A DNA stretch of 19,720 nt from a virus (Duplodnaviria; Heunggongvirae; Uroviricota; Caudoviricetes). The translations under genes were made by a program, and so were the position numbers. Positions 1-17,537 of the stretch are shown in pieces (the first letter of the stretch is position 1; every line of letters starts with the position of its first letter). The DNA lies in IMG/VR virus record IMGVR_UViG_2541047897_000009; one strand, written 5' to 3'. A model generated the notes under the pieces. It saw only the letters and a program-made list of their open reading frames with translations, searched no databases and was not told where the DNA came from.

Positions 1-1254
1 ATGCCAAAACTCACAGATATGCAGATCCGCGCATGGATAAAGGCGGGAGACAGATTTGATGGCAAGGCAGACGGCAACGGCCTTTATATTTGCTACCCCA
101 AAAACTACACAGTCCCGTTCTGGCGATTCCGCTATAAGCTCGCAGGAAAGCAGCGGGCTATGGTTATAGGCTCTTACTCCGAACTGTCACTATCAAAAGC
201 CAGAGAAACAGCAAAAGAGCTGTCAGCCAGAGTTGCTCTTGGCTATGACGTAGCAGCAGAGAAACAGGAACGAAAAGCTGAAGCACTGGCAAAAATGGAG
301 GCTGAGAAAAACGCCATACGCGTTTCAGATCTGGCCGCCGAATACTTCGAGCGCCAGATACTTCCGAGATGGAAACATCCCGATATCCTTCGCCGGAGAA
401 TTGATAAGGATATTAACCCCTGCATTGGGCATATGAAGGTAGAGGACGTTAAGCCACGCCACATTGACGACATGTTGAAAGGTATCGTTGACCGAGGAGC
501 ACCAACGATAGCAACAGATGTATTACGCTGGACACGCCGTATCTTTGACTATGGGATAAAACGCCACGCTCTGGAGATAAACCCTTGTTCAGCGTTTGAA
601 GTATCTGATGCTGGTGGTAAAGAGGTTTCCCGCGACCGTTGGCTAACTCGCGATGAGCTTATCAGGCTATTCGAGGCTATGCGCACCGCAAAAGGATTCA
701 GCCGCCAGAACGAACTGACATTTAAGCTATTGCTGGCACTATGCGTTCGTAAGATGGAGTTATGCGCCGCACGATGGGAAGAGTTTGATTTAGATGGTGC
801 GGTATGGCATTTGCCGGAAGAACGCAGCAAAAACGGAGACCCTATTGATATACCTCTACCTTCCCCAGCCGTTGAATGGTTGAGAGAGCTACACACCTTT
901 TCATGTAATAGCGCATGGGTGCTTCCAGCCAGGAAAATGCAAAACAGAATGATCCCACATATTCAGGAAAGCACTTTACCCGTAGCACTGGCTAAGGTTC
1001 GCGCCGAAATGCCGGATGTGCCTAATTTCACGATTCACGACTTCCGACGCACCGCACGTACTCATTTAGCAGCGTTGGGTGTTGATCCTGTCGTGGCGGA
1101 ACGATGCCTCAATCATCGCATTAAGGGCGTAGAGGGGATTTATAACCGCCATCAGTATTTTGATGAGCGTAAAGCAGCACTGGCACAGTGGGCTGATCTG
1201 CTGGTGGCACTGGAAAGCGGAAAAGACTACAACGTGACACCAATTAGAGCATGA
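1..1254 (+). CDS. int: Tyrosine site-specific integrase, P4 / CP4-57 type
   Basis: 417-aa ORF; N-terminal P4-integrase-like domain (FWRFRYKLAGKQR); C-terminal catalytic signature HDFRRTARTHL and GIYNRHQY (H-x-x-R ... Y). Confidence 0.93.
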   Translation: MPKLTDMQIRAWIKAGDRFDGKADGNGLYICYPKNYTVPFWRFRYKLAGKQRAMVIGSYSELSLSKARETAKELSARVALGYDVAAEKQERKAEALAKMEAEKNAIRVSDLAAEYFERQILPRWKHPDILRRRIDKDINPCIGHMKVEDVKPRHIDDMLKGIVDRGAPTIATDVLRWTRRIFDYGIKRHALEINPCSAFEVSDAGGKEVSRDRWLTRDELIRLFEAMRTAKGFSRQNELTFKLLLALCVRKMELCAARWEEFDLDGAVWHLPEERSKNGDPIDIPLPSPAVEWLRELHTFSCNSAWVLPARKMQNRMIPHIQESTLPVALAKVRAEMPDVPNFTIHDFRRTARTHLAALGVDPVVAERCLNHRIKGVEGIYNRHQYFDERKAALAQWADLLVALESGKDYNVTPIRA

Positions 1255-1272
1255 TGGGAGGAGAGATTCATA

Positions 1273-2223
1273 ATGAAATTACCTGCGCATAAATATTATT
1301 CTTTGGATAAAGCAGCCAAACTGGCCGGATGTGAAGTATCCGATTTAATACACTATGCAGCAATTGGGGTTTTAGAAATATGCACAAAGATTCCACCTAT
1401 TGAATTGTTTTACCATTACCCAAAAGATGAAAATGCCGAGCCAGAATTACTTAAAGTTGAAACAGATAGCTTTTTCGATATAGATGAGAAAGTGGCAAAT
1501 GAGAACTACCTTCTTGGACTGAGCGATAATATAGATGATCCTGAATCATATGGATTATCATCCCTTGATGACAAAAATGACGATAACCACCTGTATTTTA
1601 TTAGATTTTCATACAAATCAGAGCATTTTTCAGTTATAGAGCGATACAATGTCGGAAAGGATAAAAGAGAGATAGAAAGATGGTGCGGTCTATTAGCAAT
1701 TCCTCCTGCATTCATAGATAACGATGAGCGAGAGCTATCAGAATGGGATGATTGGGAGATTTCAGTATGCGAATTGACGCCGCCAAGATGTGACGATTTT
1801 TATAAATCGCCGGATTATGAAATCGGAACTTTTTATATTGACGGATGGTATGAAGTAAGCCGGAACAAAATGTATATAACTGATTATGAATTCAATCTCC
1901 TTATCAATGGAGGAAGATATATTTATGATAAACCCATGCACAAGCCTTCTGCAAACAAGTTATCCAATGATATAAACACGTTGAAAGTCAATAAACGTGC
2001 CGAACGACACGCTGTCAATAGGGAGAAACTATTAAAATCTGCAATTTATATACTTAGTAAGTATCCAGATGAATGCAGAGGAGAAAGGAAAGAAATAAGC
2101 CCGGAAAAGTGGCGTGACTGCCTTGTTCGGCATTTAGGCGAAGTTCCACCACTTATGATAACTAATGAAGATGTAATTCTTAAACATCTACGAGCTGCGG
2201 CAAATGGCAAAGTAGATAGTTAA
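1273..2223 (+). CDS. Hypothetical protein, 316 aa, AT-rich; N-terminal HTH-like motif (AAKLAGCEVSDLIHYAAIG), acidic middle, unknown C-terminal domain
   Basis: Long ORF 19 bp after int stop; markedly lower GC than flanking genes; same position as yfjH in CP4-57 (int-yfjH-alpA), homology unverified. Confidence 0.7.
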   Translation: MKLPAHKYYSLDKAAKLAGCEVSDLIHYAAIGVLEICTKIPPIELFYHYPKDENAEPELLKVETDSFFDIDEKVANENYLLGLSDNIDDPESYGLSSLDDKNDDNHLYFIRFSYKSEHFSVIERYNVGKDKREIERWCGLLAIPPAFIDNDERELSEWDDWEISVCELTPPRCDDFYKSPDYEIGTFYIDGWYEVSRNKMYITDYEFNLLINGGRYIYDKPMHKPSANKLSNDINTLKVNKRAERHAVNREKLLKSAIYILSKYPDECRGERKEISPEKWRDCLVRHLGEVPPLMITNEDVILKHLRAAANGKVDS

Positions 2224-2329
2224 CTTACTATAGAGGTACTGCAAAAATACAGTACCTTTTCATTGTATATCTATACAGTTAGTTTTCTCGTAACGAAGCA
2301 ACAACTATCGTTAAGAGGTTACGGGAAGC

Positions 2330-2533
2330 ATGAACACTGACACTATTCCTACAAAAGGCTATATCAGACGCTTCCGCCTGGCTGAATTGCTGGGCGTTAG
2401 TGTATCCACCATCGACCGTAAAGTAAGAAACGGTTCACTACCACGTCCGGTAAAGCTGGGAGAAAAAATAACTGCGTTTGATGCGGTTGAGATTCACAAC
2501 TGGCTGGCAGAACGCCGCGGGAAGGTGGCCTGA
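2330..2533 (+). CDS. alpA: AlpA-family HTH transcriptional regulator / excisionase-like
   Basis: 67 aa; motif RLAELLGVSVSTIDRKVRNGSLPRPVKLG typical of AlpA/Xis HTH proteins. Confidence 0.88.
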   Translation: MNTDTIPTKGYIRRFRLAELLGVSVSTIDRKVRNGSLPRPVKLGEKITAFDAVEIHNWLAERRGKVA

Positions 2534-2964
2534 TGGAAAAGAAAAACCGCCCATTACAGGCGGCTAATTCAGATATTCGCGTATCTGATGTTACGCCCCT
2601 TACAAAATCCCTTCAAGCACCAAAGCGCACACCGAAAAAGCATCGTGCCCGAGTCTATATGCTGCGTACTGGTATAGAGGGATGGACAGAAAATGACATT
2701 CTTCGCTACTGCCGTCTGTCTTCTGGTCGTAACTATGCAACAGAGTTAGAACGCCAGCTTGGAATCACTCTGGAGCGTATCGACGAAAAGAATCCTGATG
2801 GTATCGGAACACACCTCCGCTACCGTTTTTCCTGCCGTGGTGATGTTCTGAAAGTGATCACTCATGTTAACCATCTTGCGAACATAAATGATCACAACGG
2901 ACTTTCTCAGCAGGAAATTGCCGACATTCTGAAACTCTACCCGGACGCGTTTAACGCCGCCTAA
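2533..2964 (+). CDS. Hypothetical protein, 143 aa
   Basis: ATG overlaps alpA stop (TGATG), implying translational coupling; basic N-terminus. Confidence 0.65.
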   Translation: MEKKNRPLQAANSDIRVSDVTPLTKSLQAPKRTPKKHRARVYMLRTGIEGWTENDILRYCRLSSGRNYATELERQLGITLERIDEKNPDGIGTHLRYRFSCRGDVLKVITHVNHLANINDHNGLSQQEIADILKLYPDAFNAA

Positions 2965-2976
2965 CGGAGACTGAAA

Positions 2977-3810
2977 ATGAACATCGAAAAAAGCAGATTA
3001 ATTTCTGAGGCCGCCCCTCATCCGAACGCCTCTCTGGGCACAATTAACGGTAATGAATTTGCCGCAATTGTCCCGGTTATTCCTGGTCATATCGGTGGGC
3101 GTGAAACCAATATTGTTAGCGCAAAAGCGTTACACAAAGCGTTGGGCGTGGGAAAAGACTTCTCTACATGGATCACTGATCGCATCTCTGAGTATGACTT
3201 CACCATTGGGCGCGATTACTCAGTCCATAAAACAATTTCCCCAAATTTGGGGAAAAGCCCGAATGGCGCGGCTTACAGCAAGATTAAGCAGTCTGGCAGA
3301 CCCGGTAAAGACTATCTGTTAAGTGTCGGAATGGCGAAAGAACTGGCAATGATCGAACGCAATGATCAGGGTCGCGCTATCCGCCGTTATTTCATCCAGT
3401 GCGAGGAAGAATTACAGCGTAGCGTGCCTGAAATCGCCGCCCGCTATCGTCGCCAGCTAAAAGCCCGTATCAGTGCCGCAAACAACTTTAAGCCAATGTG
3501 CGATGCGCTGAATATGGCCCGTGCCGAGATGGGTAAAACGACGCAGCAACACCACTACACAAACGAGAGCAATATGATTTCTCGTATCGTTCTTGGTGGG
3601 CTAACTGCTAAGCAGTGGGCGCGGATAAATGGCTATTCTGGCGAACCTCGCGACCATATGAACGCAGAACAGCTTGAGCACCTCTCATATCTCGAAAGCA
3701 CCAATATCACGTTAATTGATATGGGCATGGAATATGAGCAGCGCAAAGGAGAACTCACCCGCCTGTCGCAACGCTGGCTCGCTAAGCGTCTGGAGGCGGT
3801 CCATGTTTAA
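2977..3810 (+). CDS. Phage antirepressor (AntA-like N-terminal domain + KilA-C/AntB-like C-terminal domain)
   Basis: SAKALHKALGVGKDFSTWITDRISEYDFTIGRDY matches the AntA pattern; KDYLLSVGMAKELAMIERNDQGRAIRRYFIQCEEEL matches the KilAC pattern; GGAGA RBS. Confidence 0.85.
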   Translation: MNIEKSRLISEAAPHPNASLGTINGNEFAAIVPVIPGHIGGRETNIVSAKALHKALGVGKDFSTWITDRISEYDFTIGRDYSVHKTISPNLGKSPNGAAYSKIKQSGRPGKDYLLSVGMAKELAMIERNDQGRAIRRYFIQCEEELQRSVPEIAARYRRQLKARISAANNFKPMCDALNMARAEMGKTTQQHHYTNESNMISRIVLGGLTAKQWARINGYSGEPRDHMNAEQLEHLSYLESTNITLIDMGMEYEQRKGELTRLSQRWLAKRLEAVHV

Positions 3811-3985
3811 GCCGACAGGAACACCACAACCTCAAAAACGCTACAAAGATGCCCACGGAGCACTCGTTACTGTCGAAAGCGTGTCTCACAACCGAGTGAC
3901 GTTTTATCGCGACGGGTATCAATCGCCATGCGTACAACCGCTGGCACGTTTCATGAAGGAGTTCGCGGAGGTTAACAAATGCTAA
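3803..3985 (+). CDS. Small phage protein, DUF4222-like (60 aa)
   Basis: Start ATG at 3803 overlaps antirepressor stop (ATGTTTAA); sequence MFKPTGTPQPQKRYKDAHGALVTVESVSHNRVTFYRDGYQSPCVQPLARFMKEF recalls the DUF4222 pattern. Confidence 0.6.
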   Translation: MFKPTGTPQPQKRYKDAHGALVTVESVSHNRVTFYRDGYQSPCVQPLARFMKEFAEVNKC

Positions 3986-4478
3986 CCGCCCAGAAGAAGA
4001 TATTTTCACTGGCCGATATGTCGCCAAAATCCAGCAATATGACAGCAAAATCAGGCATTAATACAGCAGATGCAAGCAAAGTTTATCATTTGCTGGTGGT
4101 AGGAGCGGATGCCTTAACTATGTCAGAAATTACGGTCGATGGTGTTAGCGTTGAGAAGGTCAGCGGCTGCGCCAGAGAATTTCTGGTCGTAGATGGCTTT
4201 CTCTGCTCGCGTAGTGGCTCCACAAAAACCTTCGTCCACACGCGCGACGTTAACGAAATGAGCGCGATGTATTGTGCATCTGGTGCTTCCAATAGTGAGT
4301 TTTCGGAGTCCATAAAAAAGAGCTTGCCGTTATGCGGCAACACGGTTTATGGTTATAAGGCACCTCATAAAACGGGTGCCGGGATTGGCGTCCTGGTAAA
4401 TCGAATGGCGACATATGACGCGCCGAGCGTCTTTTTTTATGTCGTAGGTCTGACTCACCCATTTTTTGGGCGTTGGTG

Positions 4479-4484
4479 TATAAT
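4479..4484 (+). promoter_or_regulatory. Consensus -10 hexamer TATAAT; candidate early promoter of the icd-to-primase operon (poor -35)
   Basis: TATAAT at 4479-4484 preceded by a T-tract; about 155 nt upstream of the icd-like start. Confidence 0.35.
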
Positions 4485-4490
4485 CCAGCG

Positions 4491-4640
4491 CCTTTGTCAA
4501 TCAATGGTGGCTCAGGCAGGGGCTTCTTCGGAAGCGCCGGTATCCATTCGAGCCGGTTACGCCAACCCTGTCTGGGCTACCACCAGCGAAATTGGCGTTT
4601 CCGGTGGTAGCGTTACATGCTATCGAATGGAGGCTGCCAC
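4491..4640 (+). ncRNA. Structured leader; possible P4 CI-like immunity RNA region with seqA/seqB-like repeats
   Basis: UUCG-tetraloop hairpin 4522-4535; 9-bp perfect stem GCTACCACC (4576-4584) / GGTGGTAGC (4603-4611); direct repeats ATGGTGGCT (4504-4512) and ATGGAGGCT (4627-4635), the latter overlapping the icd RBS. Confidence 0.3.
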
Positions 4641-4835
4641 ATGCTGGCTACTACCCCTACCCAAAAACCGCAATTTATCTGGATTATCGCCGCAGTTCGC
4701 CGCGATTGCCCGACAATTACCGCCAAAATTCATCATATTGCTGCCGAGTCTGAACGCGATGCTCGCCGTTCTCTGGTGCGCGATCACGTCTGCTTTTTTG
4801 CTGGTCGTATCCGCATGGAGGTGGCACATGATTAA
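4641..4835 (+). CDS. icd: Host cell division inhibitor Icd-like small protein (64 aa)
   Basis: GGAGG RBS 6 nt upstream; QKPQFIWIIAAVRRD ... ESERDARRSL ... FFAGRI resembles the Icd-like family of P4-type elements (from memory). Confidence 0.6.
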   Translation: MLATTPTQKPQFIWIIAAVRRDCPTITAKIHHIAAESERDARRSLVRDHVCFFAGRIRMEVAHD

Positions 4836-5046
4836 AACCTACGATGTGCATATGGATCCCCTCGAACGCACAAGCCAGATCATCACACTGACAGAAGTGA
4901 TTAACGACATTCTGGTGAGCAACTCTCCCTCACGAGACGAAAGACTGAAGGCGTTACTCGCGATATTGGATCTCGCCGTTCGTGACGTTCATTTCCTGCT
5001 GGAAGGTGGCGAAATGCCAGGAAAAACGGGGGCAACCAATGAATAA
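4828..5046 (+). CDS. Hypothetical small protein (72 aa)
   Basis: GGAGGTGG RBS; ATG overlaps icd stop (ATGATTAA); clean start. Confidence 0.55.
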   Translation: MIKTYDVHMDPLERTSQIITLTEVINDILVSNSPSRDERLKALLAILDLAVRDVHFLLEGGEMPGKTGATNE

Positions 5047-5233
5047 CTCAATTAATGCCCCTCGACTTACGTCCGCACTTCAATTAATCGAGCAAGCAGC
5101 GGCTGTCCTGGTTGCTGTCAGTCTTTCGGCTGAAGAAATGGACGCTGCTGATGTCGTGGATGCGATTAAAGCGTGCTCATCTTTGGTTAACGATGCCCGT
5201 GCAGAGCTGGTAATTCTTGGGGGTGAAAAATGA
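5039..5233 (+). CDS. Hypothetical small protein (64 aa)
   Basis: ATG at 5039 overlaps upstream stop (ATGAATAA); in-operon. Confidence 0.5.
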   Translation: MNNSINAPRLTSALQLIEQAAAVLVAVSLSAEEMDAADVVDAIKACSSLVNDARAELVILGGEK

Positions 5234-5493
5234 ATATCAACTTAATTTATCGTCATCCGTGTGAGCTGGAAATTGAATCATTGCTGAGTCGTGAAGAGCT
5301 ATATCCAGACACATTCACTCTTGCAGATCGCACGACTGAACGGCTTACCAGAGCGCGCACAGGTCTGGTTCATGTGATGAATGAGATTCTTCCATCGGTG
5401 GGAGGGGAACAGGCGACAGTAATCAATAGCTGGCTACAAAAAGTTACCTCCCTGATAGATATCAGTTTAATCGATGCGGAGAGTGCGAAATGA
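5230..5493 (+). CDS. Hypothetical small protein (87 aa)
   Basis: ATGA start/stop overlap with upstream gene; G-rich RBS. Confidence 0.6.
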   Translation: MNINLIYRHPCELEIESLLSREELYPDTFTLADRTTERLTRARTGLVHVMNEILPSVGGEQATVINSWLQKVTSLIDISLIDAESAK

Positions 5494-5711
5494 CCAACAT
5501 CCAGCTCATTGAAGCGCAATGTCGCATCGAACAGGTTCAGACTGTTTTAGGGTTCTGGCTTGAAGGGGCCAGCCCCAGCAACAGAGACAAGTTAATGATT
5601 GGCGCGGTTATGTCACTGCTCAATGGCGTACCAAAAGCTATTCAGGAAGCAGACGAATTGTTGGGCAAATATGAGTTACAGAATCATTCAGGCGAGGCGA
5701 AACATGAATAA
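5490..5711 (+). CDS. Hypothetical small protein (73 aa)
   Basis: ATGA overlap; GGAGAG RBS. Confidence 0.6.
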   Translation: MTNIQLIEAQCRIEQVQTVLGFWLEGASPSNRDKLMIGAVMSLLNGVPKAIQEADELLGKYELQNHSGEAKHE

Positions 5712-6306
5712 TTTCTTAACCTTCCATGCAGAAGCAACGCCTGACGGCGTAAACATCATGCACCGCAGCAACGATGGCATGACAGAACGCGTTGAGACCG
5801 TTTCATATATTGATGCCGTAAATCGTCTGGATGCCGGGGATTATGACGATAAACCAGATGAAGGTATGTCAATACATCTCGCTATTGCCGATGGCGGCAA
5901 CCAGGGATATTTCGATTACACATCACAGCATAACGTCATTATGTGGAGATGGCTGATCGCAACAGTATTCATGCTGGAAATGAGAGAGGAAAACGGCACT
6001 GTCAGCATCATTGATGATACTGGCAATCCTTCCGAAGTGGCTGTTTATTCCAACGGCATCGTCGCCATGCCGCTGTATCCAGTAGCAGAGCGCCTCGCTA
6101 TGGCAAACAACATTGAGGGCGCGATGATAGAACGTTTTGGCATCGAGTCTGGCACAGAACGCGCCATCATTTTCTACAGAGCCATGATGGATGTGGAACA
6201 AGGAGCACTGACTCCATTTGGTCGTGAAACGCTTGCTGAACTTCACAACAGCTTTATAGCTGAACTGAATGAAAACGGCATGCCAGCGGAACCAGTGACG
6301 CACTGA
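5704..6306 (+). CDS. Hypothetical protein (200 aa)
   Basis: Internal ATG at 5704 overlapping upstream stop (ATGAATAA) with GAGG RBS; preferred over the longer 5599 start. Confidence 0.6.
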   Translation: MNNFLTFHAEATPDGVNIMHRSNDGMTERVETVSYIDAVNRLDAGDYDDKPDEGMSIHLAIADGGNQGYFDYTSQHNVIMWRWLIATVFMLEMREENGTVSIIDDTGNPSEVAVYSNGIVAMPLYPVAERLAMANNIEGAMIERFGIESGTERAIIFYRAMMDVEQGALTPFGRETLAELHNSFIAELNENGMPAEPVTH

Positions 6307-6316
6307 GGATGGATCC

Positions 6317-6658
6317 ATGATTACTAAAAATTTCCGACTGAATGCGCTGGCAAATAAGTATGCGTCGGCACTGTATAACCACATTACCTCCACCAGCGGC
6401 GGGGACTATTTCATGGTTGATGCGGACGGCGAGGCCGTCCGTGTGGAAATCGTCAATGGAGTAAAAGGCGTTCGCAGCCTGATCGATAGCTACACACTGG
6501 CAGCCATGAAAGTGTTCTACCCGCAGTGGGAAACCGTGGGGATAGAGCTTCTTGATCGTTGCGTCACTAAGGACGGATTGACTGACGTCGGGCGTGAGAT
6601 ATGGCAAAGCATGGTTAATGACATGGGCGCAACTGTAGCGGGAGGTTCTCATGCGTGA
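6317..6658 (+). CDS. Hypothetical protein (113 aa)
   Basis: GAGGATGG RBS; in-operon. Confidence 0.6.
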   Translation: MITKNFRLNALANKYASALYNHITSTSGGDYFMVDADGEAVRVEIVNGVKGVRSLIDSYTLAAMKVFYPQWETVGIELLDRCVTKDGLTDVGREIWQSMVNDMGATVAGGSHA

Positions 6659-7022
6659 AAATGCAGAAATGGCGCTTAGCTCCGCAATCGGAGAGCAGGT
6701 GGCAAAGATTGCTGGCGCTGTGTGGATTCATAACCTTCATTCTACTGGTGAAGAGAAAATGGCAATTCAGACGCCAGAGGGACGCACCATTACTACATCT
6801 CTGAAGGCGTCAGATGTTTGTGATCTGATTTGCGCATTCATGTACCCAGCAATGAGGACTGTCCACGGCGATAAGTGGAAACTTGCGACAACCGCTGAAT
6901 TTGATATGTGGCTAAACAATGATGGCATGCTGACTGATTACGGAATAACCAAGTGGCAGATGCTGGTTAGCCATATCGCAAACGCTATAGACCACGTGGG
7001 GTACGGTGATGCGAAACATTGA
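6651..7022 (+). CDS. Hypothetical protein (123 aa)
   Basis: GGGAGG RBS; 8-nt overlap with upstream gene; overlaps primase start. Confidence 0.6.
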   Translation: MRENAEMALSSAIGEQVAKIAGAVWIHNLHSTGEEKMAIQTPEGRTITTSLKASDVCDLICAFMYPAMRTVHGDKWKLATTAEFDMWLNNDGMLTDYGITKWQMLVSHIANAIDHVGYGDAKH

Positions 7023-9765
7023 TCTTATCCGTCAGGTTATCAGTGCGTCTGAAAACAACTGGCCTCATGTGCTGGGCTGCCTGAACATAAATGTCCCTGA
7101 CTCTCCGCGCCGTCATGCTCCCTGCCCTGCATGTGGGGGCAAAGATCGATTCCGGTTCGATGACAACGGGCGCGGTAGCTTCATCTGTAATCAGTGCGGC
7201 GCTGGTGATGGACTGGATTTAATTAAACGCGTAAATAACTGCGACACAACAGAGGCGGCGCTTCTTGCCGCTGATGTTCTGGGTATTGATTACCGGACAA
7301 CGGAAACACCAGAAGCCACCAGCCAGAAACGGGAACAACTGGAAACCGAGCGCCAGCGACGCGAACAGGAGCGCCTGAAAAGGGCAGAGAAGGACGAACA
7401 ACAAAGACGGGATACGTTTTCCCGTCAGTTTGATGACATGCGCAGAAAGGCTGTAAACGGCAAATCTGATTATCTGGTTGCGAAAGGGGTAGGTGATTTT
7501 ACATTCCCCGTGTTGCCCGATGGATCTCTGTTGCTGGCGCTGGTGGATAAATCCGGCGCAGTAACAGCAGCACAGACTATTACCTCACATGGTGAAAAAA
7601 GACTCCTGACAGGTTCAGCAAAGCGAGGGGCATATCACGCCATAAACGCACCAGAAACAACACAGAGCATCTTAATCGCAGAAGGGCTGGCAACGGCATT
7701 ATCTGCCCATTTAATTCGTCCAGAGGCGCTGACAGTGGCGGCGATTGATGCCGGGAACCTGTTATATGTCGCCCAGGTACTGCGGGATAAATTTCCTTCA
7801 GCACAAATCATCATTGCTGCGGATAACGACCACAGCGAAGGAAGACAAAACACGGGGAGAATAGCAGCAGAAAAAGCAGCTTTATCTGTTTCTGGATGGG
7901 TGGCATTACCCCCGACAGATCACAAAGCAGACTGGAATGATTACCACCAAAAACACGGCATTAAATGCGCCACAGAAGCGTTCAATAAGTCAATGTACCA
8001 ACCACAGGGTAATGGCGTGAAACAGGAGCCACAGACCATTGAGGGAAGCGATTTTAAGGTTATGGATACCGACCCACTGAAACCAAGAATAGAAAGCCGC
8101 GAGGATGGTATTTATTGGGTATCTCCGAGAGCTGACAGCCAGAGTGGAGAAATCATCAATAACGAAAGCTGGTTATGTTCTCCGTTAAGCGTTATCGGTA
8201 CTGGCAGAGACGATAAAGACCAGTATCTCATTCTTCGCTGGCTGTCGTTTGGTTCTGAAACGCCGACAACCGCTGCCATTCCACTGGCTGATATTGGTGA
8301 ACGTGAAGGATGGCGCACACTTAAAGCTGGTGGGGTAAATGTCACGACCAAAAGCAGCCTCAGAGCAATACTGGCAGACTGGCTACAACGCAGTGGCTCT
8401 CGTGAATTGTGGCGTGTTGCTCATGCCACTGGCTGGCAATGCGGAGCGTACATCATGCCTGATGGGGAAATCATCGGAACACCTGAAAATCCTGTGCTGT
8501 TCAGCGGGAGAAGCTCAGCCGCAGCCGGATATACCGTCTCAGGGAGCGCGAAAAGCTGGCGTGATAACGTGGCGCGTCTGGCCTTTGGTAACTATTCAAT
8601 GATGACCGGGATCGGCGCAGCACTGGCAGCGCCATTGATTGGGCTGGTGGGCGCTGACGGGTTCGGCATTCATTTCTATGAGCAGTCGAGCGCAGGTAAG
8701 ACCACCACGGCAAACGTGGCGAGCAGCTTATACGGCAACCCTGATTTACTGCGGCTGACGTGGTACGGAACCGCGCTGGGGCTGGCAAATGAAGCTGCCG
8801 CCCACAATGACGGACTAATGCCGCTTGATGAAGTTGGTCAGGGCGCTGATCCTGTCAGTGTTTCACAGTCTGCCTATGCGTTATTTAACGGTGTAGGGAA
8901 ACTGCAAGGCGCTAAAGATGGTGGAAACCGGGATCTAAAACGCTGGCGTACAGTGGCAATCAGCACCGGAGAAATGGATTTAGAAACATTTATCGCTACT
9001 TCCGGGCGAAAAACCAAAGCCGGGCAACTGGTGCGACTGCTGAATATTCCGTTGAGTAAAGCAGTACGCTTTCACGATTACCAGAACGGAAAACAGCACG
9101 CAGACGCACTGAAAGACGCTTACCAGCATCACCACGGCGCGTCCGGGCGTGAGTGGATTAAATGGCTGGCAGACCACCAGCAACAGGCTATTAAAACTGT
9201 TCGTGATTGCGAAAGCAGATGGAGAAGCCTGATCCCATCCGATTATGGTGAGCAGGTTCACCGTGTAGCCGCGCGATTTGCCATTCTGGAGGCCGCATTG
9301 TTGTTAGGCGAGGTTGTAACAGGCTGGGATGCTCAGACATGCCGTGATGCGATACAGCACAGCTATAACGCATGGTTGCGCGAGTTCGGCACAGGTAACA
9401 AAGAGCATCAGCAGATTATTGAACAAACGGAGGCATTTCTTAATGCCTATGGGCTTAGCCGTTTTGCACCATTTCCATACAGCCCGGCAGATTTGCCCAT
9501 CAAAGATTTAGCCGGATACCGTCAGCGTGGAGAACATGACGAAAGTCCAATGATTTTCTACACATTCCCGGCCACATTTGAAAAGGAGATCGCATGTGGT
9601 TTCAACGCAAAACAGTTTGCTGAAGTGTTGAAAAAAGCCGGGATGCTAACCCCACCAAACAGCGGTCGTGGATACCAAAGAAAATCACCACGTATTCAGG
9701 GACGACAAATAAACGTTTATGTACTCAATTACCAGCCAGGAGATTACAACTCATCTGAAGAATGA
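7009..9765 (+). CDS. Bifunctional primase-helicase, P4 alpha type (zinc-ribbon primase + Toprim + C-terminal NTPase)
   Basis: CPACGG...CNQCG zinc ribbon; Toprim-like ILIAEGLATALS ... IIIAADNDH; Walker-A-like SSAGKTT; 919-aa ORF (GTG 7006 / ATG 7009). Confidence 0.9.
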   Translation: MRNIDLIRQVISASENNWPHVLGCLNINVPDSPRRHAPCPACGGKDRFRFDDNGRGSFICNQCGAGDGLDLIKRVNNCDTTEAALLAADVLGIDYRTTETPEATSQKREQLETERQRREQERLKRAEKDEQQRRDTFSRQFDDMRRKAVNGKSDYLVAKGVGDFTFPVLPDGSLLLALVDKSGAVTAAQTITSHGEKRLLTGSAKRGAYHAINAPETTQSILIAEGLATALSAHLIRPEALTVAAIDAGNLLYVAQVLRDKFPSAQIIIAADNDHSEGRQNTGRIAAEKAALSVSGWVALPPTDHKADWNDYHQKHGIKCATEAFNKSMYQPQGNGVKQEPQTIEGSDFKVMDTDPLKPRIESREDGIYWVSPRADSQSGEIINNESWLCSPLSVIGTGRDDKDQYLILRWLSFGSETPTTAAIPLADIGEREGWRTLKAGGVNVTTKSSLRAILADWLQRSGSRELWRVAHATGWQCGAYIMPDGEIIGTPENPVLFSGRSSAAAGYTVSGSAKSWRDNVARLAFGNYSMMTGIGAALAAPLIGLVGADGFGIHFYEQSSAGKTTTANVASSLYGNPDLLRLTWYGTALGLANEAAAHNDGLMPLDEVGQGADPVSVSQSAYALFNGVGKLQGAKDGGNRDLKRWRTVAISTGEMDLETFIATSGRKTKAGQLVRLLNIPLSKAVRFHDYQNGKQHADALKDAYQHHHGASGREWIKWLADHQQQAIKTVRDCESRWRSLIPSDYGEQVHRVAARFAILEAALLLGEVVTGWDAQTCRDAIQHSYNAWLREFGTGNKEHQQIIEQTEAFLNAYGLSRFAPFPYSPADLPIKDLAGYRQRGEHDESPMIFYTFPATFEKEIACGFNAKQFAEVLKKAGMLTPPNSGRGYQRKSPRIQGRQINVYVLNYQPGDYNSSEE

Positions 9766-9780
9766 GCTTCTTCATGTGCG

Positions 9781-9912
9781 TAGAAAAGGTGTTGGTTCAG
9801 TTGGTTCAGTTGGTTCAGTTGGTTCAATTTGTAAAGAGTATTGTTTTATAAGTATTTTATTCTTTTTATTGAACCAACACTGAACCAACAACACGGTATT
9901 TTGAACCAACAC
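9781..9912. repeat. Iteron block A (ori-like): 4 tandem GTTGGTTCA, AT-rich spacer, 3 inverted TGAACCAAC
   Basis: Direct copies at 9781, 9790, 9799, 9808; inverted copies at 9870, 9881, 9902; immediately downstream of the primase gene. Confidence 0.8.
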
Positions 9913-9960
9913 AATGTGACTGAATTGATGCGCACAACACCTGGCTGGCATCAGAGAGTG

Positions 9961-10035
9961 TTTTACGAGACTTTCGTAAAATCCTGTGTACAAGGGCGTG
10001 ACGTTTTTGAAAGTGAGCACTACGAAATTTTCGTA
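9961..10035. promoter_or_regulatory. Pair of palindromic operator-like sites sharing half-site TTTCGTA
   Basis: TTTTACGAGACTTTCGTAAAA (9961-9981) and perfect palindrome TACGAAATTTTCGTA (10021-10035), centres about 57 bp apart. Confidence 0.4.
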
Positions 10036-10230
10036 GTTCAAAAAACAGCCTCTGAGAAGTTGTTATGCCTGTTCAGCAAACCATCCGCATAGCTGATCGC
10101 GAATCAAATTACCAATGGAGCCAGAAGCAAGGGCAGAACTGAAAAGCGCCTGCCGTGAAGAGTAATGCGACACCATAAATATAGTTTTTAGAGTCCATAA
10201 AAAACCTGTCAAAACCTGACACACAGAACG

Positions 10231-10263
10231 ATGCCACCAGCTACTGAGCGGTGGCATTTTTTT
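10231..10263 (+). terminator. Rho-independent terminator
   Basis: 8-bp GC-rich stem ATGCCACC / GGTGGCAT with 11-nt loop, followed by 7 T residues. Confidence 0.65.
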
Positions 10264-10358
10264 GTGCTATTTGTTTCATATTTTGCAATTACTATGATGA
10301 ATATTGCGATTTGTGAAACTATAATAACTGTTGTTTTATACAGTTCTAAGGGGGCGTT

Positions 10359-10520
10359 ATGGCTATTTCAGTAAAGCCGGTATTGATAAGTGAGAAGCAA
10401 ATGGAAGCGATAAAGAAAATTCAGGAAGAGCAGCGTAAAAAATCAGGAATTGGAGTAGCGCCAACTCTGCATGAAATTGCACGAGGGTTAATAGATAAGG
10501 CGCTGGCAGGCTGTATGTGA
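10359..10520 (+). CDS. Small protein (53 aa), possible ribbon-helix-helix DNA-binding regulator
   Basis: Below the 60-aa ORF-track cutoff; strong RBS AAGGGGG 5 nt before ATG; predicted strand-helix-helix pattern. Confidence 0.5.
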   Translation: MAISVKPVLISEKQMEAIKKIQEEQRKKSGIGVAPTLHEIARGLIDKALAGCM

Positions 10521-10536
10521 AAATGGATGGCATCGC

Positions 10537-10998
10537 ATGGAACTAAAATTTATTGATAACCCTGTGCGATTACAGGCCTTTCTTAACGAGCCAGGCAATA
10601 CCGAAAATATTGTTGAGCCGGGGCACACGTACTACATCAAGCCTGATGCGGTATATCTCGGCATCTACGAAGGATTGGTGCTGGCTGGCGTTCATGAAGT
10701 GCGTAACTTCTGGCATAGCATTGTTGAATGCCATGCGGTGTACGCCCCCGGATTCCGTGGTGAATATGCACTGCAAGGGCATCGATTATTCTGCAAGTGG
10801 CTTCTCGAAAACTCACCATTCCTTAACAGCATTACCATGGTTCCTGACACCACGAAATACGGACGGGCAATTATCCGTTTGCTTGGCGCTACCCGTGTTG
10901 GTCACCTTGATGATGCTTATATCAGATGTGGTAAACCCGTCGGCGTAACGCTTTATCAGTTAACTCGGCAACAATATAAGGAATTCAGCGAATGTTAA
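10537..10998 (+). CDS. Hypothetical protein (153 aa); first gene of a coupled 4-gene operon, possibly a virion/ejection-protein assembly factor (P22 gp14-like by position only)
   Basis: Clean ORF; downstream gene start overlaps its stop (ATGTTAA). Confidence 0.65.
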   Translation: MELKFIDNPVRLQAFLNEPGNTENIVEPGHTYYIKPDAVYLGIYEGLVLAGVHEVRNFWHSIVECHAVYAPGFRGEYALQGHRLFCKWLLENSPFLNSITMVPDTTKYGRAIIRLLGATRVGHLDDAYIRCGKPVGVTLYQLTRQQYKEFSEC

Positions 10999-11669
10999 TT
11001 ACCCACATAGCTCATAAACATCTCAATCGTGCCGTATACGAAAAAGGCGGTGATGGTGGTGCCTCTAAAGCTCAGGCGAAGGCCCAGCAGCAGGCAATTG
11101 ATTTGCAGCGCGAGCAGTGGAATACGGTGATGAATAATCTCAAGCCGTATGCAGAAGTCGGATTGCCTGCTTTACAACAACTACAAGGACTGATGACTCT
11201 GGAAGGGCAGAATAAAGCCGCGAATGATTTCTTTGGTTCTGGTTTATATAAAACACAGGCAGATCAGGCCCGTTATCAGAACCTTGTCTCAGCAGAAGCT
11301 ACCGGGGGGCTTGGCTCAACAGCTACCAGTAACCAGTTATCTTCCATTGCGCCCATGCTTTATAACAATTGGCTTAGTGGGCAAATGCAAAATTATGGAA
11401 ACCTGCTAAATGTCGGGATGAATGCGGCATCAGGGCAGGCAACAGCAGGGCAAAACTACGCCAATAATACCGGGCAACTCTTGCAGGGGCTTGGCGCTAT
11501 TCGTGCAGGTCAGGCGCAGCAGCCATCCAGTCTTGCGCGTGGTATTGGTGGGGCGGCATCAGGCGCTTTAGCGGGTGCGCAACTTGGTTCCGTTGTTCCG
11601 GGTATAGGTAATGTCGCCGGGGCTATTGGTGGTGGGCTTATTGGTCTTGTTGGGGGGCTTGGATTCTAA
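10992..11669 (+). CDS. Putative virion internal / DNA-ejection protein (225 aa; P22 gp7-like by size, order and composition)
   Basis: AAGGAA RBS; Q/A-rich; glycine-zipper hydrophobic C-terminus (GIGNVAGAIGGGLIGLVGGLGF). Confidence 0.7.
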   Translation: MLITHIAHKHLNRAVYEKGGDGGASKAQAKAQQQAIDLQREQWNTVMNNLKPYAEVGLPALQQLQGLMTLEGQNKAANDFFGSGLYKTQADQARYQNLVSAEATGGLGSTATSNQLSSIAPMLYNNWLSGQMQNYGNLLNVGMNAASGQATAGQNYANNTGQLLQGLGAIRAGQAQQPSSLARGIGGAASGALAGAQLGSVVPGIGNVAGAIGGGLIGLVGGLGF

Positions 11670-13090
11670 TGGCGACATGGCAACTTGGCGGGCTGCCTAG
11701 CATGGCACCGCAAAATGATAATGCTCCTCGTTCTTCCGTTCCTCAGCCTGTGCAGTATCAGCAGCAGCCAAACGTAGGTTTAATGGCGCTACAGGGGCTA
11801 AGAGGCGTTGCTGAGATTAATCAGCAGGCACGTCAACAACAGCGTAAAGCAGAGTTTCAGAAAGCATATGCCGGGGCTTTTGAGTCTGGAGACAGAAACA
11901 AAATGCGCAGTCTTATTTCTGAGTATCCAGAAGAATTTGAAAGCGTTCAGAAAGGGATGGGCTTTATTGATGACGACCAGAGAAATTCTATTGGTCATCT
12001 TGCGACTAGTGCTCAAATCGCATCTTCGCTCGGAACTGGGGCATTTGGAAAATTCATAGCAGATAACGAAGATGAAATGCGTCGCTTGGGAATTTCTCCT
12101 GAGTCTGTTGCCGAAATGCATGTTAATGATCCACAGGGATTCCAGCGGCTTGCTGGTAGTATGGCACTGTTTTCTCTCGGTCATGAGAAGTATTTCGATA
12201 TCAAAGATCAAATGGAAGGTCGGGATATTGAGCGTGGCAAGTTGGCAGAAACAATCCGCAGCAATCAGGCTGGCGAAGCACTTCAGGCGAGAGGGCAGGA
12301 TATTAGCCGAGCAAATGCGTTAACGTCAGCATATGCACCAACAGCAGCAATGCAGAATTACAATCAGTACGCTCAAATGTTAAAGGAGGATCCAGAGGGG
12401 GCGGCGGCATTTGCGGCAGCGGCTGGAATTAATACAAACGCCAAAAAATTAATGAGTGTTAGAGAAAACGATGATGGCACTGTCACAAAATACTACACAG
12501 ACGGAAGTGAAGAGCAGGGAAAACTAAACCAGCCAATATCTGGAGATGGGTTTCGTCCAATAGCTTTGCCAACAGCCCAAAAGATCATGGAAAAGTCGCC
12601 AGAAGGGGCTAAAAAAGCTGCTGGATTTGCATACAGAGTTAGGGATGCTCTTGATTCAATGGATACACTGAAAGGCCAGCTTAGCCCACAGCGAGTGGCG
12701 ATCATTAATAATGCTTTGGGTAATGGGACGCTGGCTAACTTAACGCTCAGCCCAACAGAGCAGCAATACGTTGTTAATGCTAATGACGCAATAATGGCAA
12801 TACTCCGTCAGGAAACAGGGGCAGCTATCGTACCTGCTGAAATGTCAAAATATTATCAAATGTATTTCCCTCAGCCTGGCGACTCCACAAAAACCATTGA
12901 TACCAAGCGCCGGAAGATGGAAAACCAGTTCAATTCGCTGAAAGCTGCTTCTGGTCGAGCTTATGATGCTTTGCGGGTTATTTCAGCAGTTGACAGAGGG
13001 ACTTCTTCTTCGTCGCAGACATTGCCGCAATCTGAGCAGGTATCACAGCCAGCAGCCAGCAGTAACTTTTCTTCACTATGGGGTGATTAA
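11669..13090 (+). CDS. Putative DNA-ejection / internal virion protein (473 aa; P22 gp20-like by size and order)
   Basis: TAATG overlap with upstream gene; low-complexity Q/A/S-rich termini. Confidence 0.7.
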   Translation: MATWQLGGLPSMAPQNDNAPRSSVPQPVQYQQQPNVGLMALQGLRGVAEINQQARQQQRKAEFQKAYAGAFESGDRNKMRSLISEYPEEFESVQKGMGFIDDDQRNSIGHLATSAQIASSLGTGAFGKFIADNEDEMRRLGISPESVAEMHVNDPQGFQRLAGSMALFSLGHEKYFDIKDQMEGRDIERGKLAETIRSNQAGEALQARGQDISRANALTSAYAPTAAMQNYNQYAQMLKEDPEGAAAFAAAAGINTNAKKLMSVRENDDGTVTKYYTDGSEEQGKLNQPISGDGFRPIALPTAQKIMEKSPEGAKKAAGFAYRVRDALDSMDTLKGQLSPQRVAIINNALGNGTLANLTLSPTEQQYVVNANDAIMAILRQETGAAIVPAEMSKYYQMYFPQPGDSTKTIDTKRRKMENQFNSLKAASGRAYDALRVISAVDRGTSSSSQTLPQSEQVSQPAASSNFSSLWGD

Positions 13091-15195
13091 TGGCTAAAGC
13101 ATGGAAAGATGTTATCGCCTCTCCACAGTATCAGGCGTTAGCACCAGAACAAAAAGCGCAGGCTCAGGAGCAATACTTCAATGAAGTCGTTGCCCCGCAA
13201 GCCGGAGAAAGTGTAGCGCAGGCTAAGCAGGCTTTTTATGCTGCCTATCCACTACCATCAACGAATGAAATAGACCGATCCCAATCAGCAACTCAAAATA
13301 TTCAACATACATCATCTGATAATTCTCTTGCGTCAGGGTATGCAAAGTTAGCTACTCAGCAAAGAGAGGGGCTTGAGCGTTCAGCAGAACAGGGAGCCAG
13401 CCTTGGGGCTGCGATGCGCGATGCTATAACAGGCGAAAGCCGAATGACTCCAGAGATGGCGAGACTGCAAAATGTCGACCTTGCCCCAGAGTTAACCTCA
13501 CTCAGTATGGATGCTCTAAAAGCTCGATGGTCTCAACTTTTCGGCTCTGACGCATCTCAGGAAAAGATTCTTCAGAGCATGGGAGCGAAATTAAGGCAGG
13601 ATGAGAAGGGTAACACTATCGTTTCCCTGCCATCCGGTGATTATGCTCTGAACAAGCCGGGTTTATCGCCGCAAGACGTGGCATCGTTTCTGGCTAATGC
13701 GCTGGCGTTTACACCAGCGGGCAGGGCCGGAACGGTGCTGGGGGCCATAGGGAAATCAGCAGCTACAGATTTAGCACTACAGGGAGCCACCAGCCTTGCT
13801 GGTGGAGAAGATATTGATCCGTTACAAACGGTAATTTCTGCTGGCATTGGCGGCATTGGTAAGGGGCTGGAGAATACAGCGAGTGCGGTTTCGAGGGCTG
13901 TTCGTGGTGATATGGCACCGGAAGCGAAAGCCGCTGTTGATTTTGCATCGGAAAGAAACCTGCCGTTAATGACCAGTGACGTACTGAAAGATAAAAACAC
14001 TGTGCAGAGTCTGGCCCAGAAAACAGGCGAAAAAATCCCTTTTTTTGGAACGGGTACGAACAGGTTGAATCAACAACAGGCACGGGAAAATCTGGTCAGA
14101 ACATATAACGATGGTCTGGGAGGCATTTCAGATAAACAGCTTTATGAATCTGCGACTAAAGGGCAGCAAAAATTCATTGAGGCCGCAGGAAAGCGATATA
14201 ACCGCATAATTGACGCTATGGGGGATACCCCTGTCGATCTCTCAAACACGGTAAAAGCTATCGACAATCAGATTGCCGTGTTAAGCCGCCCGGGCAAATC
14301 TCAGGATAGAGCCGCGGTAAAAGTCTTGCAGCAATTTAAAGACGATATCACCAGCGGACCAAATGACCTGCGTCTGGCGAGAGAAAACAGAACTGACCTT
14401 CGAAAGCGGTTCATGAATTCAAACGAGACAGTTGATAAAGACACGCTCCAGAAAGCCAGCGATATTGTCTACAAGGCATATACGCTGGATATGAGAAGGG
14501 CAGTAGCCCAGAAACTGGGTTCAGAAGAAGCAGCCAATATGGCAAGGGTCGATCGCTCATGGTCTAAATTCAATGACATGATGGGAAGAACGCGCGTTCA
14601 GAAGGCAATAGCCAGCGGCAAGGCCACGCCTGAGGATGTAACAAAACTCGTTTTTAGCCAAAGCTCATCAGAACGTTCTCAGCTTTACAGGCTTCTGGAT
14701 GACAACGGCAGGCAGAACGCACGGGCAGCCATAATACAGAATGCTGTAGATAAGGCGACTGATTCGGCGGGGAATATCAGCGTTGAGAAGTTTATTAACA
14801 CGCTACACCGGAACAGAAAGCAATCCGCAACGTTCTTTAAGGGCGTGCACGGAAAGGAACTGGACGGCATTATTAAATACCTCAACGATACCAGACAGGC
14901 GGCAAAGGTTGACGGTCAGAAATTAAACAGCCAGAAACTTTATGGCCTGCTGGTTGGTGGAGGCGCTATAAATGCGGCAGTTCTGGCGGGGATGCTGAAA
15001 ACGGCTGCGTTTGTTGTTCCTGCTGCTGGTGCCGTAGGCGGAGCAGCGAAGGCATACGAAAGCCCTGTTATACGAAATGCCTTGTTACGTCTGGCAAATA
15101 CGCCAAAAGGTAGCACAGCATATGACAGAGCGATCAGTACGGTCACACAATCACTGACCACAGCAGCACAAGCATCGCAAAAGGAAGCTCAATAA
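13090..15195 (+). CDS. Putative DNA-ejection / internal virion protein (701 aa; P22 gp16-like by position)
   Basis: TAATG overlap with upstream gene; A/Q/G-rich; hydrophobic glycine-rich segment near C-terminus (GLLVGGGAINAAVLAGMLKTAAFVVPAAGAVGGAA). Confidence 0.7.
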   Translation: MAKAWKDVIASPQYQALAPEQKAQAQEQYFNEVVAPQAGESVAQAKQAFYAAYPLPSTNEIDRSQSATQNIQHTSSDNSLASGYAKLATQQREGLERSAEQGASLGAAMRDAITGESRMTPEMARLQNVDLAPELTSLSMDALKARWSQLFGSDASQEKILQSMGAKLRQDEKGNTIVSLPSGDYALNKPGLSPQDVASFLANALAFTPAGRAGTVLGAIGKSAATDLALQGATSLAGGEDIDPLQTVISAGIGGIGKGLENTASAVSRAVRGDMAPEAKAAVDFASERNLPLMTSDVLKDKNTVQSLAQKTGEKIPFFGTGTNRLNQQQARENLVRTYNDGLGGISDKQLYESATKGQQKFIEAAGKRYNRIIDAMGDTPVDLSNTVKAIDNQIAVLSRPGKSQDRAAVKVLQQFKDDITSGPNDLRLARENRTDLRKRFMNSNETVDKDTLQKASDIVYKAYTLDMRRAVAQKLGSEEAANMARVDRSWSKFNDMMGRTRVQKAIASGKATPEDVTKLVFSQSSSERSQLYRLLDDNGRQNARAAIIQNAVDKATDSAGNISVEKFINTLHRNRKQSATFFKGVHGKELDGIIKYLNDTRQAAKVDGQKLNSQKLYGLLVGGGAINAAVLAGMLKTAAFVVPAAGAVGGAAKAYESPVIRNALLRLANTPKGSTAYDRAISTVTQSLTTAAQASQKEAQ

Positions 15196-15257: not shown

Positions 15258-15656
15258 TTAACACTTGCCTTTAACATTGCCGACAAATGAGCCTGTAAAT
15301 GAGCCTATATCAGATCGACTAATTGTTCGTGTATGGATCACTTTTCCGTCATTTGAGATTGCCCATGTGACAAGCGTCAGTTGACCATCTCGATAGCTTC
15401 TTCCCATCATGGCATTCGGAGACAGCGGGTAATAATCAATACCTCCACCTATACCATCTTTTGCCAAGATAAGATCCGCCTTCTCTTTACTTATTACCAA
15501 ATGAAAGGTATCTGGTATAGATGATAACTTATAGTTATACCCATCTGAACTTGAGGCTTCTTGTCCTTTCAGATCACCAATAATCCAGCATTCAGCGTTC
15601 GCTCCAAAAGAAGCAAATAATAAACCGGAGACAACCAATCGCTTCAATTGATTCAC
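15258..15656 (-). CDS. Small secreted (periplasmic) protein, about 132-aa precursor, unknown function
   Basis: Near-perfect RBS AAGGGAGGG 5 nt before a GTG start; N-terminal signal peptide (M)NQLKRLVVSGLLFASFGANA with cleavage after ANA; Cys at both ends of the mature protein; convergent with the ejection-like operon. Confidence 0.6.
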   Translation of the reverse strand: MNQLKRLVVSGLLFASFGANAECWIIGDLKGQEASSSDGYNYKLSSIPDTFHLVISKEKADLILAKDGIGGGIDYYPLSPNAMMGRSYRDGQLTLVTWAISNDGKVIHTRTISRSDIGSFTGSFVGNVKGKC

Positions 15657-15768
15657 ACCAACCCTCCCTTTAGCGTTGTTTAGAATGGCAATCATCATAT
15701 ATCCAAGACATGGCATTTGGTACATAGCTTGGGTCGGGATTTCAAATCCGCCCCCGTTGATGGGGTCG

Positions 15769-16136
15769 TTACAGTACGCGCATATCCGCTTTATGTGAAA
15801 CAGGAAGATTTTTCTGATATCACTGCCACAGCAAAACACCAATTTCGTGACCAGTACGCGCGCGAGGGGTATCAGTTGCAAAAAGTTTTGCAACTACGTC
15901 CGACCAGTACGCGCACGATGGAGGGGAGTACCATAAAACTGTTCTCTACATAAGTCAGAGTGGTGGTGATGTGTTGATTATCGGCGTATATGCGCACAGG
16001 ACGCGCTATGACGATGTTTTATGCGGGTACACCAATCACATGATAAATCGCGTTACATGACCTCTCATGTTGTGCTGGTGGTTATCACGACGTTCTGAAT
16101 CTGGCCTTTGCCTGGTATTTTGCGACAAGTACGCGC
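15769..16136 (+). promoter_or_regulatory. Array of four direct repeats (core CAGTACGCGC) with an embedded 18-bp palindrome
   Basis: TTACAGTACGCGC 15769-15781; GACCAGTACGCGC 15849-15861 and 15902-15914 (identical); GACAAGTACGCGC 16124-16136; palindrome TTGCAAAAAGTTTTGCAA 15876-15893 between copies 2 and 3. Confidence 0.45.
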
Positions 16137-16344
16137 GCGTAGCATCGAAATAATCGGATGGCGTATGCTGCTGGTAATATGAAGACCGATAGCATTAACC
16201 GAAAGGAGAAAGACTTCTCGATAACGGCAAGGGGGCTGAATTGCGAGGCGAGATTAAGCAACTGTCTTGAACGTAAAAATCATGGAGCAACATGATGGTA
16301 CGATTCATTCCATTCTTCGTTCTTTCTGAGCATTGCGTTCAGGC

Positions 16345-17306: not shown

Positions 17307-17378
17307 GCAGCACCTAACCAGCACTAGACAAGCCCTGTGCTGGTGGATGTCCCTCATAATTAGCGGTTTTTAAACGGC

Positions 17379-17503: not shown

Positions 17504-17537
17504 CTTTTTGCTTATCTATATAGTCTGAGAGGCAGAA

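Follow-up and report, generated by a model that had tools for sequence, protein, structure and literature searches.

An uncharacterised protein family in the integrase-adjacent slot of Gram-negative phage satellites is exchanged as cassettes

A gene between the integrase gene and alpA of the virus record IMGVR_UViG_2541047897_000009 (Caudoviricetes; 19,720 nucleotides, the whole of which is referred to here as the window) belongs to a family that has been seen so far only directly after the integrase gene in the phage satellites of enteric bacteria. We call this gene X. Its family is undescribed, in that we found no Pfam entry, NCBIfam entry or paper for it; the type of element that carries it is already known. 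X is a real gene under purifying selection, and its alleles are exchanged as cassettes between otherwise identical satellite backbones. The window is very probably a phage-inducible chromosomal island (PICI) of the EcCIMP1 family, located between yicC and dinD and equipped with a different integration module, and we classify X with high confidence as the integrase-contiguous gene of this island. By analogy with other satellites, we tentatively suggest that X may act as a specificity or sensor factor of the switch that controls satellite integration and excision–induction.

An X-family gene lies directly downstream of, and in the same orientation as, a P4-type integrase gene in all 33 loci that were examined (17 of 17 from IMG/VR, 4 of 4 from GTDB and the rest from Escherichia coli, Salmonella, Kluyvera, Enterobacter and metagenomes). 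These loci cover at least four integrase clades and attachment (att) sites (yicC, der, mipA and a prophage late gene), and their backbones include PICIs, a capsid-forming PICI with capsid and protease genes (locus L004) and a helper-embedded PICI (locus L017). With the exception of the helper-embedded L017 and L018, alpA directly follows the X-family gene in all loci that reach beyond it, and a satellite primase gene is found farther downstream in most of the loci that extend that far. Searches with tblastn returned no X homologue from 50,697 phage records and a single match from 72,556 plasmid records, which proved to lie in a mislabelled, chromosome-sized record of 4.9 Mb. The arrangement in L017/L018 (5441–7963) is of separate interest: a homologue with 44% identity to X follows an integrase gene that is inserted directly behind terminase, portal and Mu_F-like prophage late genes, and is itself followed by a Bro-N gene and not by alpA, which is a helper-embedded PICI configuration.

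A reading of the window that used only the letters and the open reading frames (ORFs; the sequence-only reading) had been unable to assign X to a family, and the database searches agreed: we found no match in Pfam, NCBIfam, PHROG or PADLOC (PADLOC-DB v2.0.0), and none of the Pfam hidden Markov models (HMMs), including Phage_AlpA, HTH_17 and MerR, reached E ≤ 1. The best PADLOC match of X was to mad1, at the level of a winged helix-turn-helix (wHTH; E = 0.04), and that of a 321-aa allele was to PDC-S31, at E = 0.002 only. Profile searches of the PDB with the full-length protein and with the C-terminal domain gave spurious or His-tag matches only, and Pfam had none for the 24 C-terminal domains and 10 distant members that were scanned. 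The relatives of X are themselves unannotated. A word-index search retrieved 68 homologues, all of which are ‘hypothetical proteins’ of Enterobacterales without Pfam domains, and a second such search, with an alignment of distant members as the query, retrieved 12 proteins. An exhaustive HMM search recovered 650 cluster representatives at E ≤ 1 × 10−3 (197 at E ≤ 1 × 10−10), nearly all of which are 270–350 aa in length. All the named members that were sampled come from Enterobacterales or Aeromonadales (Klebsiella, Salmonella, Providencia, Pantoea, Enterobacter and Pseudaeromonas), and Vibrio is not among them.

Exchange of X is visible where closely related satellites are compared. Among 5,426 complete E. 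coli genomes, 337 have the integrase of the window and 41 carry its X allele. Near-identical elements at this site hold family members of 316, 321 and 281 aa, plus two proteins, of 293 and 216 aa, whose resemblance to the family is not significant. The element of strain P4 (L001) and that of KC-Dl-1 (L012) encode identical AlpA, AntA, DUF4222 and Ash proteins and have X alleles of 316 versus 281 aa. In locus L003, int DNA is 99.4% identical up to nucleotide 1241, where homology is lost, to be regained at nucleotide 1998 at 74% identity. In three strains X is near-identical (dS = 0.01–0.03) and the int genes have dS values of 0.47–1.3. The variable module of X is thus freely swapped, and the C-terminal module is constant across integrase and AlpA types. 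Within the family, the N-terminal and middle module is also found attached to another C terminus in P0081 and P0092, and P0184 has two C-terminal modules in one protein. Neither of the dissimilar occupants matched Pfam or PADLOC; the 293-aa protein (L013, 2854–3735) has a weak N-terminal likeness to X (hhalign E = 0.009), and the 216-aa ORF (L010, 2766–3416) overlaps int by 4 nt. The sequence-only reading had placed X in a variable slot for accessory genes next to int. The variability is borne out by the five occupants of near-identical yicC-site elements; the content is mostly a single slot-bound family and not an arbitrary accessory gene.

The selection regime is that of a functional gene: X is intact in all 41 copies from complete E. 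coli genomes, and dN/dS between the window allele and its sub-alleles is 0.18–0.20. We considered positive selection and rejected it, given a dN/dS of 0.2 between sub-alleles; values of 0.46–0.55 among the closest copies are based on a handful of changes. Cassette replacement is a better explanation of X diversity than point-mutation arms races. The base composition of X (GC, 0.368; GC at third codon positions, 0.297) is lower than that of int (0.494) and alpA (0.500), as had been noted from the sequence.

Most likely, X is a soluble, non-enzymatic protein of two modules that functions in sensing or regulation rather than catalysis (Table 1). The AlphaFold2 model (predicted local distance difference test (pLDDT), 76.8) has a wHTH at residues ~8–45, where the sequence-only reading had pointed to a helix-turn-helix-like segment, a beta-rich domain at residues 109–211 with a pLDDT of ~90, a disordered linker at residues 218–238 and a helical region at residues 239–312. 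The first of the two central regions is the ordered core of the middle part, which is also disordered at residues 86–105. A model of residues 101–316 alone is poorer (pLDDT of 61 versus 77 at full length), which hints that the N terminus packs on the middle domain. The recognition helix has D, H, Y and A at positions where AlpA has R, K and N (residues 20–35 are CEVSDLIHYAAIGVLE, and the alpA counterpart is VSVSTIDRKVRNGSLP), and the charge of the winged helix is −0.3 in X against a family mean of −1.7. The acidic strings that the earlier reading quoted from the middle of the protein are present, and acidity of this part is a family-wide trait (mean charge of −12 over 145 divergent members).

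The C-terminal region, which had been described as unassignable, has no PDB or Pfam match; what had been overlooked is that it is the most conserved part of X. Its motif is AERHAxNREKLxKSAIYILSKYPDECRGERKEISPEKWRDC...ITNEDVILKHLRAAxNGK. The last 75 residues share 75–84% amino acid identity with L011-type alleles, the remainder of which is too diverged for BLASTP alignment, and a second allele group has ~55–60% identity to X over residues 194–314. The dN/dS of this module is 0.09–0.12, and its DNA occurs, as two alleles, in 119 of the 5,426 complete E. coli genomes (~2%). A zinc site formed by H246, C268, C283 and H287 was ruled out, as C283 is not conserved. No transmembrane segment and no recognisable enzymatic, pore-forming or nucleotide-signalling domain was found in X.

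Table 1 Features of the int–X–alpA region of the window and parts of the X protein
Feature	Position	Strand	Description
int	1–1254	+	P4-type tyrosine integrase, 417 aa; opens the putative int–X unit; specific for the yicC–dinD site
Shine–Dalgarno-like GGGAGGAG	1256–1263	+	Within the 18-nt int–X spacer, 9 nt ahead of the ATG; read off the sequence
X	1273–2223	+	Intact ORF with ATG start, 316 codons; member of an unnamed family
X residues 1–45	1273–1407	+	Predicted MerR/Xis/AlpA-type winged helix-turn-helix, charge −0.3; appears to be without the basic residues found on the recognition helix of AlpA
X residues 46–235	1408–1977	+	Acidic (net −22, pI 4.4), hypervariable, beta-rich middle
X residues 236–316	1978–2220	+	Conserved, basic (pI 9.5), helical C-terminal module
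Terminator-like hairpin	2232–2264	+	Stem of 10 bp (core GGTACTG/CAGTACC) that leads into TTTTCATT; 8 nt past the X stop
alpA	2330–2533	+	67 aa; activator/excisionase-type regulator of the satellite (AlpA role, PMC6092414, PMC11773190); right-hand border of the slot

Signals around the gene suggest that X is expressed together with its neighbour. We looked for a sigma-70-like promoter on the + strand of the int–X interval and found none, so X would be co-transcribed with int; given the short spacer with its Shine–Dalgarno-like sequence and the hairpin after the X stop, int and X may form a single transcription unit that is insulated from alpA. The hairpin was missed by a consensus terminator scan and was then supported by RNA folding (−13.6 kcal/mol, z = −3.6) and by paired substitutions that preserve the stem (GGCACAG/CTGTGCC in L011 and GGTACAG/CTGTGCC in L004). 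Farther downstream, an inverted repeat (CGTAAC-N23-GTTACG, 2289–2323, + strand) spans the Shine–Dalgarno region of alpA and is kept across three different X alleles. A hairpin at this position that would sequester the alpA Shine–Dalgarno sequence was rejected, because its fold is no better than those of shuffled sequences (z = −1.46). The start codon of a 143-aa ORF (2533–2964, + strand) overlaps the alpA stop (ATGA). This ORF has no Pfam or PADLOC match, is kept after alpA in yicC-site and mipA-site elements, and has a close relative that RefSeq names ‘PM1773 family protein’ in some genomes.

The assignment of the host element is based on its position, gene content and relatives. The window is identical to the chromosome of E. 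coli strain P4 (NZ_CP072688) between yicC and dinD, where the int-equivalent gene adjoins yicC and is annotated as a tyrosine recombinase. Relatives of int with 87–99% amino acid identity occur in E. coli, Salmonella, Intestinirhabdus, Pectobacterium and Tatumella, and yicC is adjacent every time. As in other PICIs, int, alpA and a TOPRIM–DUF927 primase gene (7006–9765) are co-oriented, the element is ~20 kb in length, and phage lysis and tail genes are absent. EcCIMP1, a PICI that the P22-like phage Kapi1 was shown experimentally to induce and transduce (PMC11773190), is 97.9% identical to the window over 2523–11829 and 97.1% identical over 15731–17618, and the two elements have several RefSeq protein accessions in common. 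Identity to EcCIMP1 starts at 2523, the end of alpA, and the int–X–alpA integration module therefore differs between the two. EcCIMP1 has a tRNA-Thr integrase and, at the position of X, a 427-bp gap that holds the ~67-aa EcCIMP1_002 of its authors; a search with the family profile found no X-family ORF in EcCIMP1 or in CP4-57 of E. coli K-12.

Other parts of the element add detail to this picture. An isrK RNA (67 bits, 4360–4437, + strand) and a C4 antisense RNA (79.5 bits, 4500–4587, + strand), both above the Rfam gathering score, lie within a 355-aa ‘ash family’ ORF (3979–5046), which is the arrangement of P4-type CI/seqA immunity RNAs and implies that the early operon of the satellite may be under RNA-based control. 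A P22-type DNA-ejection gene cluster (10537–15195, + strand) comprises DUF2824, P22_gp7 and Inj_translocase (gp20-like) genes and a 701-aa ORF without a Pfam match; we take the DUF2824 gene to occupy the gp14 position of the P22 gene order, and the 701-aa ORF presumably stands in the would-be gp16 position. Identity to EcCIMP1 stops at 11829, within the gp20-like gene, so the ejection proteins would be a second swapped module. At the right end of the element is a complete PADLOC candidate defence pair (18237–19720, − strand) that EcCIMP1 lacks, consisting of a 337-aa PDC-M59A (E = 3 × 10−103) and a 153-aa Fic/Doc-family PDC-M59B (E = 3 × 10−30). Few genes lie between the ejection cluster and PerC (17538–17825): the stretch from 15258 to 17537 contains one ORF of 211 aa on the minus strand, which has no match in Pfam or PADLOC, and a short helix-turn-helix gene annotated in RefSeq. 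Upstream of int in strain P4 (L001, 18600–18728) are several TGTACA-containing repeats that resemble integrase arm sites, and a 12-nt direct repeat, GGTGTACATAAT, is found at both ends of the element (L001, to 38667), ~20.0 kb apart, as a candidate att core.

What X does can be approached from its architecture and context, and the role in the integration/excision–induction switch is the one that we favour, although we hold it at somewhat less than even likelihood. The variable acidic module would provide the specificity or sensor surface and would bind a protein of the phage that is probably basic or DNA-binding; the C-terminal module, itself conserved, would pass the output to a target that does not change from element to element and that could be a host factor or conserved DNA. 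Both modules would jointly tune the switch, comparable to iolg in the PICMIs (phage-inducible chromosomal minimalist islands) of Vibrio and to the variable Stl alleles of Staphylococcus aureus pathogenicity islands (SaPIs). The synteny with int in 33 of 33 loci, the putative int–X unit, the modularity and cassette exchange of X, purifying selection and the family-wide acidic middle are all in support. We favour this role because there is a positional precedent and a vacancy: in Vibrio PICMIs a gene that overlaps or is contiguous with int, upstream of alpA, is needed for excision and belongs to any of 13 unrelated families (PMC10803314), and the way in which helper phages activate alpA of Gram-negative PICIs is still an open question (PMC6092414). 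Several observations weigh on the other side. EcCIMP1 is induced, excised and transduced with no member of the X family in the slot, and X is therefore not generally required for this backbone. Dissimilar proteins of 293 and 216 aa can fill the slot, which in this respect resembles an accessory hot spot, and X swaps independently of int and alpA, so that its variable module shows no co-evolution with either. The element also has P4-type C4/isrK immunity RNAs already, which lessens the need for a protein regulator. A more ambitious version, which we regard as unlikely, is that many Gram-negative PICIs detect helper phages through the X family, which would be their missing sensor. In that case the acidic module would capture a specific helper protein and the C-terminal module would then license excision or alpA induction, making X, although assembled from unrelated parts, equivalent in function to SaPI Stl, and allele swaps would re-target the satellite to new helpers.

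The sequence-only reading had offered single-gene defence, abortive infection or regulation as roles for X; no defence model matched, and the context speaks slightly more for a regulatory or integration-module role than for defence. We nevertheless take seriously, while doubting it, the possibility that X acts on its own in anti-phage defence or interference and is cargo of a recombination hot spot. The acidic module would sense a phage protein and a C-terminal effector would block a conserved host or phage function; alternatively, a basic C-terminal toxin would be restrained by the acidic module, as in fused toxin–antitoxin sensors such as CapRel. This explanation is kept alive by the EcCIMP1 life cycle, which dispenses with X, by the replacement of slot content in near-identical elements, at times by proteins without detectable similarity, by cassette exchange that is decoupled from int and alpA, and by the C4/isrK RNAs. 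It is also consistent with the low GC of X and with the combination of a conserved and a hypervariable module, as is characteristic of immune sensors. Across clades, the C-terminal module has diverged less than Int or AlpA, which suggests a host-conserved target, and EcCIMP1-type elements confer superinfection immunity through a gene yet to be identified (PMC11773190). However, X has no PADLOC, Pfam or PHROG defence match and none of the domains or membrane segments through which an effector might be recognised, a recognisable candidate defence pair is located at the element's far end, and the family was never found outside the int-adjacent slot (in phages, true plasmids or other island positions), which would be unusual for a free-standing defence gene.

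Three further explanations have less in their favour. The net charge of −22 over 190 residues, the acidity that is kept across 145 divergent members, the hypervariability and cassette exchange of X, and its putative co-transcription with int, the sole gene needed immediately on entry, would suit an anti-defence establishment factor: a DNA-mimic-like protein, made with the integrase upon entry into a new cell, that neutralises restriction or other DNA-binding host defences and whose alleles would diverge through an arms race between it and the systems of the host. We consider this quite unlikely, because neither in sequence nor in fold was X found similar to Ocr, to ArdA or to other structures, solved or viral, the acidic part is modelled as a beta-rich globule with disordered loops and not as an elongated DNA-like shape, and the conserved basic C-terminal module would be left without a role. 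A conventional DNA-binding transcription factor, either an Stl-like alpA repressor or an int regulator with operators near alpA or att, is very unlikely. The winged-helix fold of the N terminus, the basic, helix-loop-helix-like C-terminal module, which is conserved along with the X–alpA intergenic DNA downstream, and a position next to int, like that of stl in SaPIs, all speak for such a factor. However, the recognition helix has D, E and H at positions where AlpA has R, K and N, the N terminus is variable although the region upstream of alpA is conserved, and X is co-oriented with alpA behind a terminator-like hairpin rather than divergent around operators; the C4/isrK RNA pair could plausibly account for quiescence, and the alpA gene of EcCIMP1 is phage-inducible without X. 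Finally, the AT-richness of X and its lack of a family assignment could be taken as signs of a decaying or non-functional ORF in AT-rich junk DNA, but this is effectively refuted by conservation: 41 E. coli copies that are all intact, a dN/dS of ~0.2, confidently modelled domains and hundreds of full-length homologues of similar length leave it almost no probability.

Gram-negative, capsid-forming and helper-embedded PICIs drive gene transfer and are widespread, and one large unannotated family (~650 clusters) is now defined for their int–alpA slot and merits a name and a Pfam entry. If X is a sensor or regulator, helper specificity would be explained; if it serves defence or anti-defence, it would add a family that is absent from current catalogues. 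The natural allele swaps on isogenic backbones and the two-module architecture amount to a ready-made experimental system, and the family, whose function is proposed here from context, is a tractable lead on satellite–helper specificity.

Several known systems share some traits with X. The sequence-only reading had suggested a comparison with YfjH of CP4-57, a protein of unknown function whose AT-rich gene likewise lies between a P4-type int and alpA and is of similar length (318 aa), but the two are unrelated: there is no sequence similarity (best BLASTP E = 0.34), yfjH is on the opposite strand, and the family profile was negative at the K-12 locus. P2/P4 hot spots and PICI accessory regions resemble the X slot in their conserved flanks, exchangeable low-GC content and unrelated replacements. 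Such satellite and prophage defence hot spots differ in that a single superfamily, which shares a conserved C-terminal module, accounts for most occupants of the X slot, no occupant matches a known defence model, and the X family was not found elsewhere. The DNA mimics Ocr and ArdA are strongly acidic, as is X, but are dissimilar in sequence and fold. AlpA, Xis and MerR proteins (Phage_AlpA, HTH_17 and MerR) share the wHTH fold; they differ in that X matches none of these HMMs, its recognition helix is acidic or neutral and the domain makes up 15% of the 316 aa.

The closest parallels are with satellite genes that adjoin int. SaPI Stl and Rpr of Gram-positive PICIs are, like X, int-adjacent, co-oriented and highly variable modular proteins that have a helix-turn-helix at one end and a variable part for binding a partner (putative in X), and allelic variation in Stl determines which phage protein is sensed. 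In contrast to X, which is co-oriented with alpA behind the terminator-like hairpin, stl is divergent from str/xis and its product binds operators between them; the wHTH of X appears to lack basic residues, and X has no sequence or structural match to Stl or Rpr. Activation in Gram-negative PICIs is through AlpA, and a protein repressor is not known (PMC6092414). The iolg/icg genes of PICMIs (Barcia-Cruz et al. 2024, PMC10803314) differ from X in their setting, a ~6-kb Vibrionaceae element at fis with a minimal gene set versus a 20-kb E. coli PICI at yicC–dinD, and in that a requirement for excision is shown for iolg of PICMI115 only; EcCIMP1, a close relative of the X backbone, works without X. 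The likeness is one of position and orientation, with X following int after an 18-nt spacer. Within these terms the parallel is close: both satellites are of the int/alpA/primase type with a co-oriented order of int, gene and alpA, and in both the gene is int-contiguous, sometimes absent, without a known domain and extremely diverse (13 unrelated families in PICMIs versus several families or alleles here); in L010, the 4-nt overlap of the 216-aa occupant with int reproduces the iolg-like geometry.

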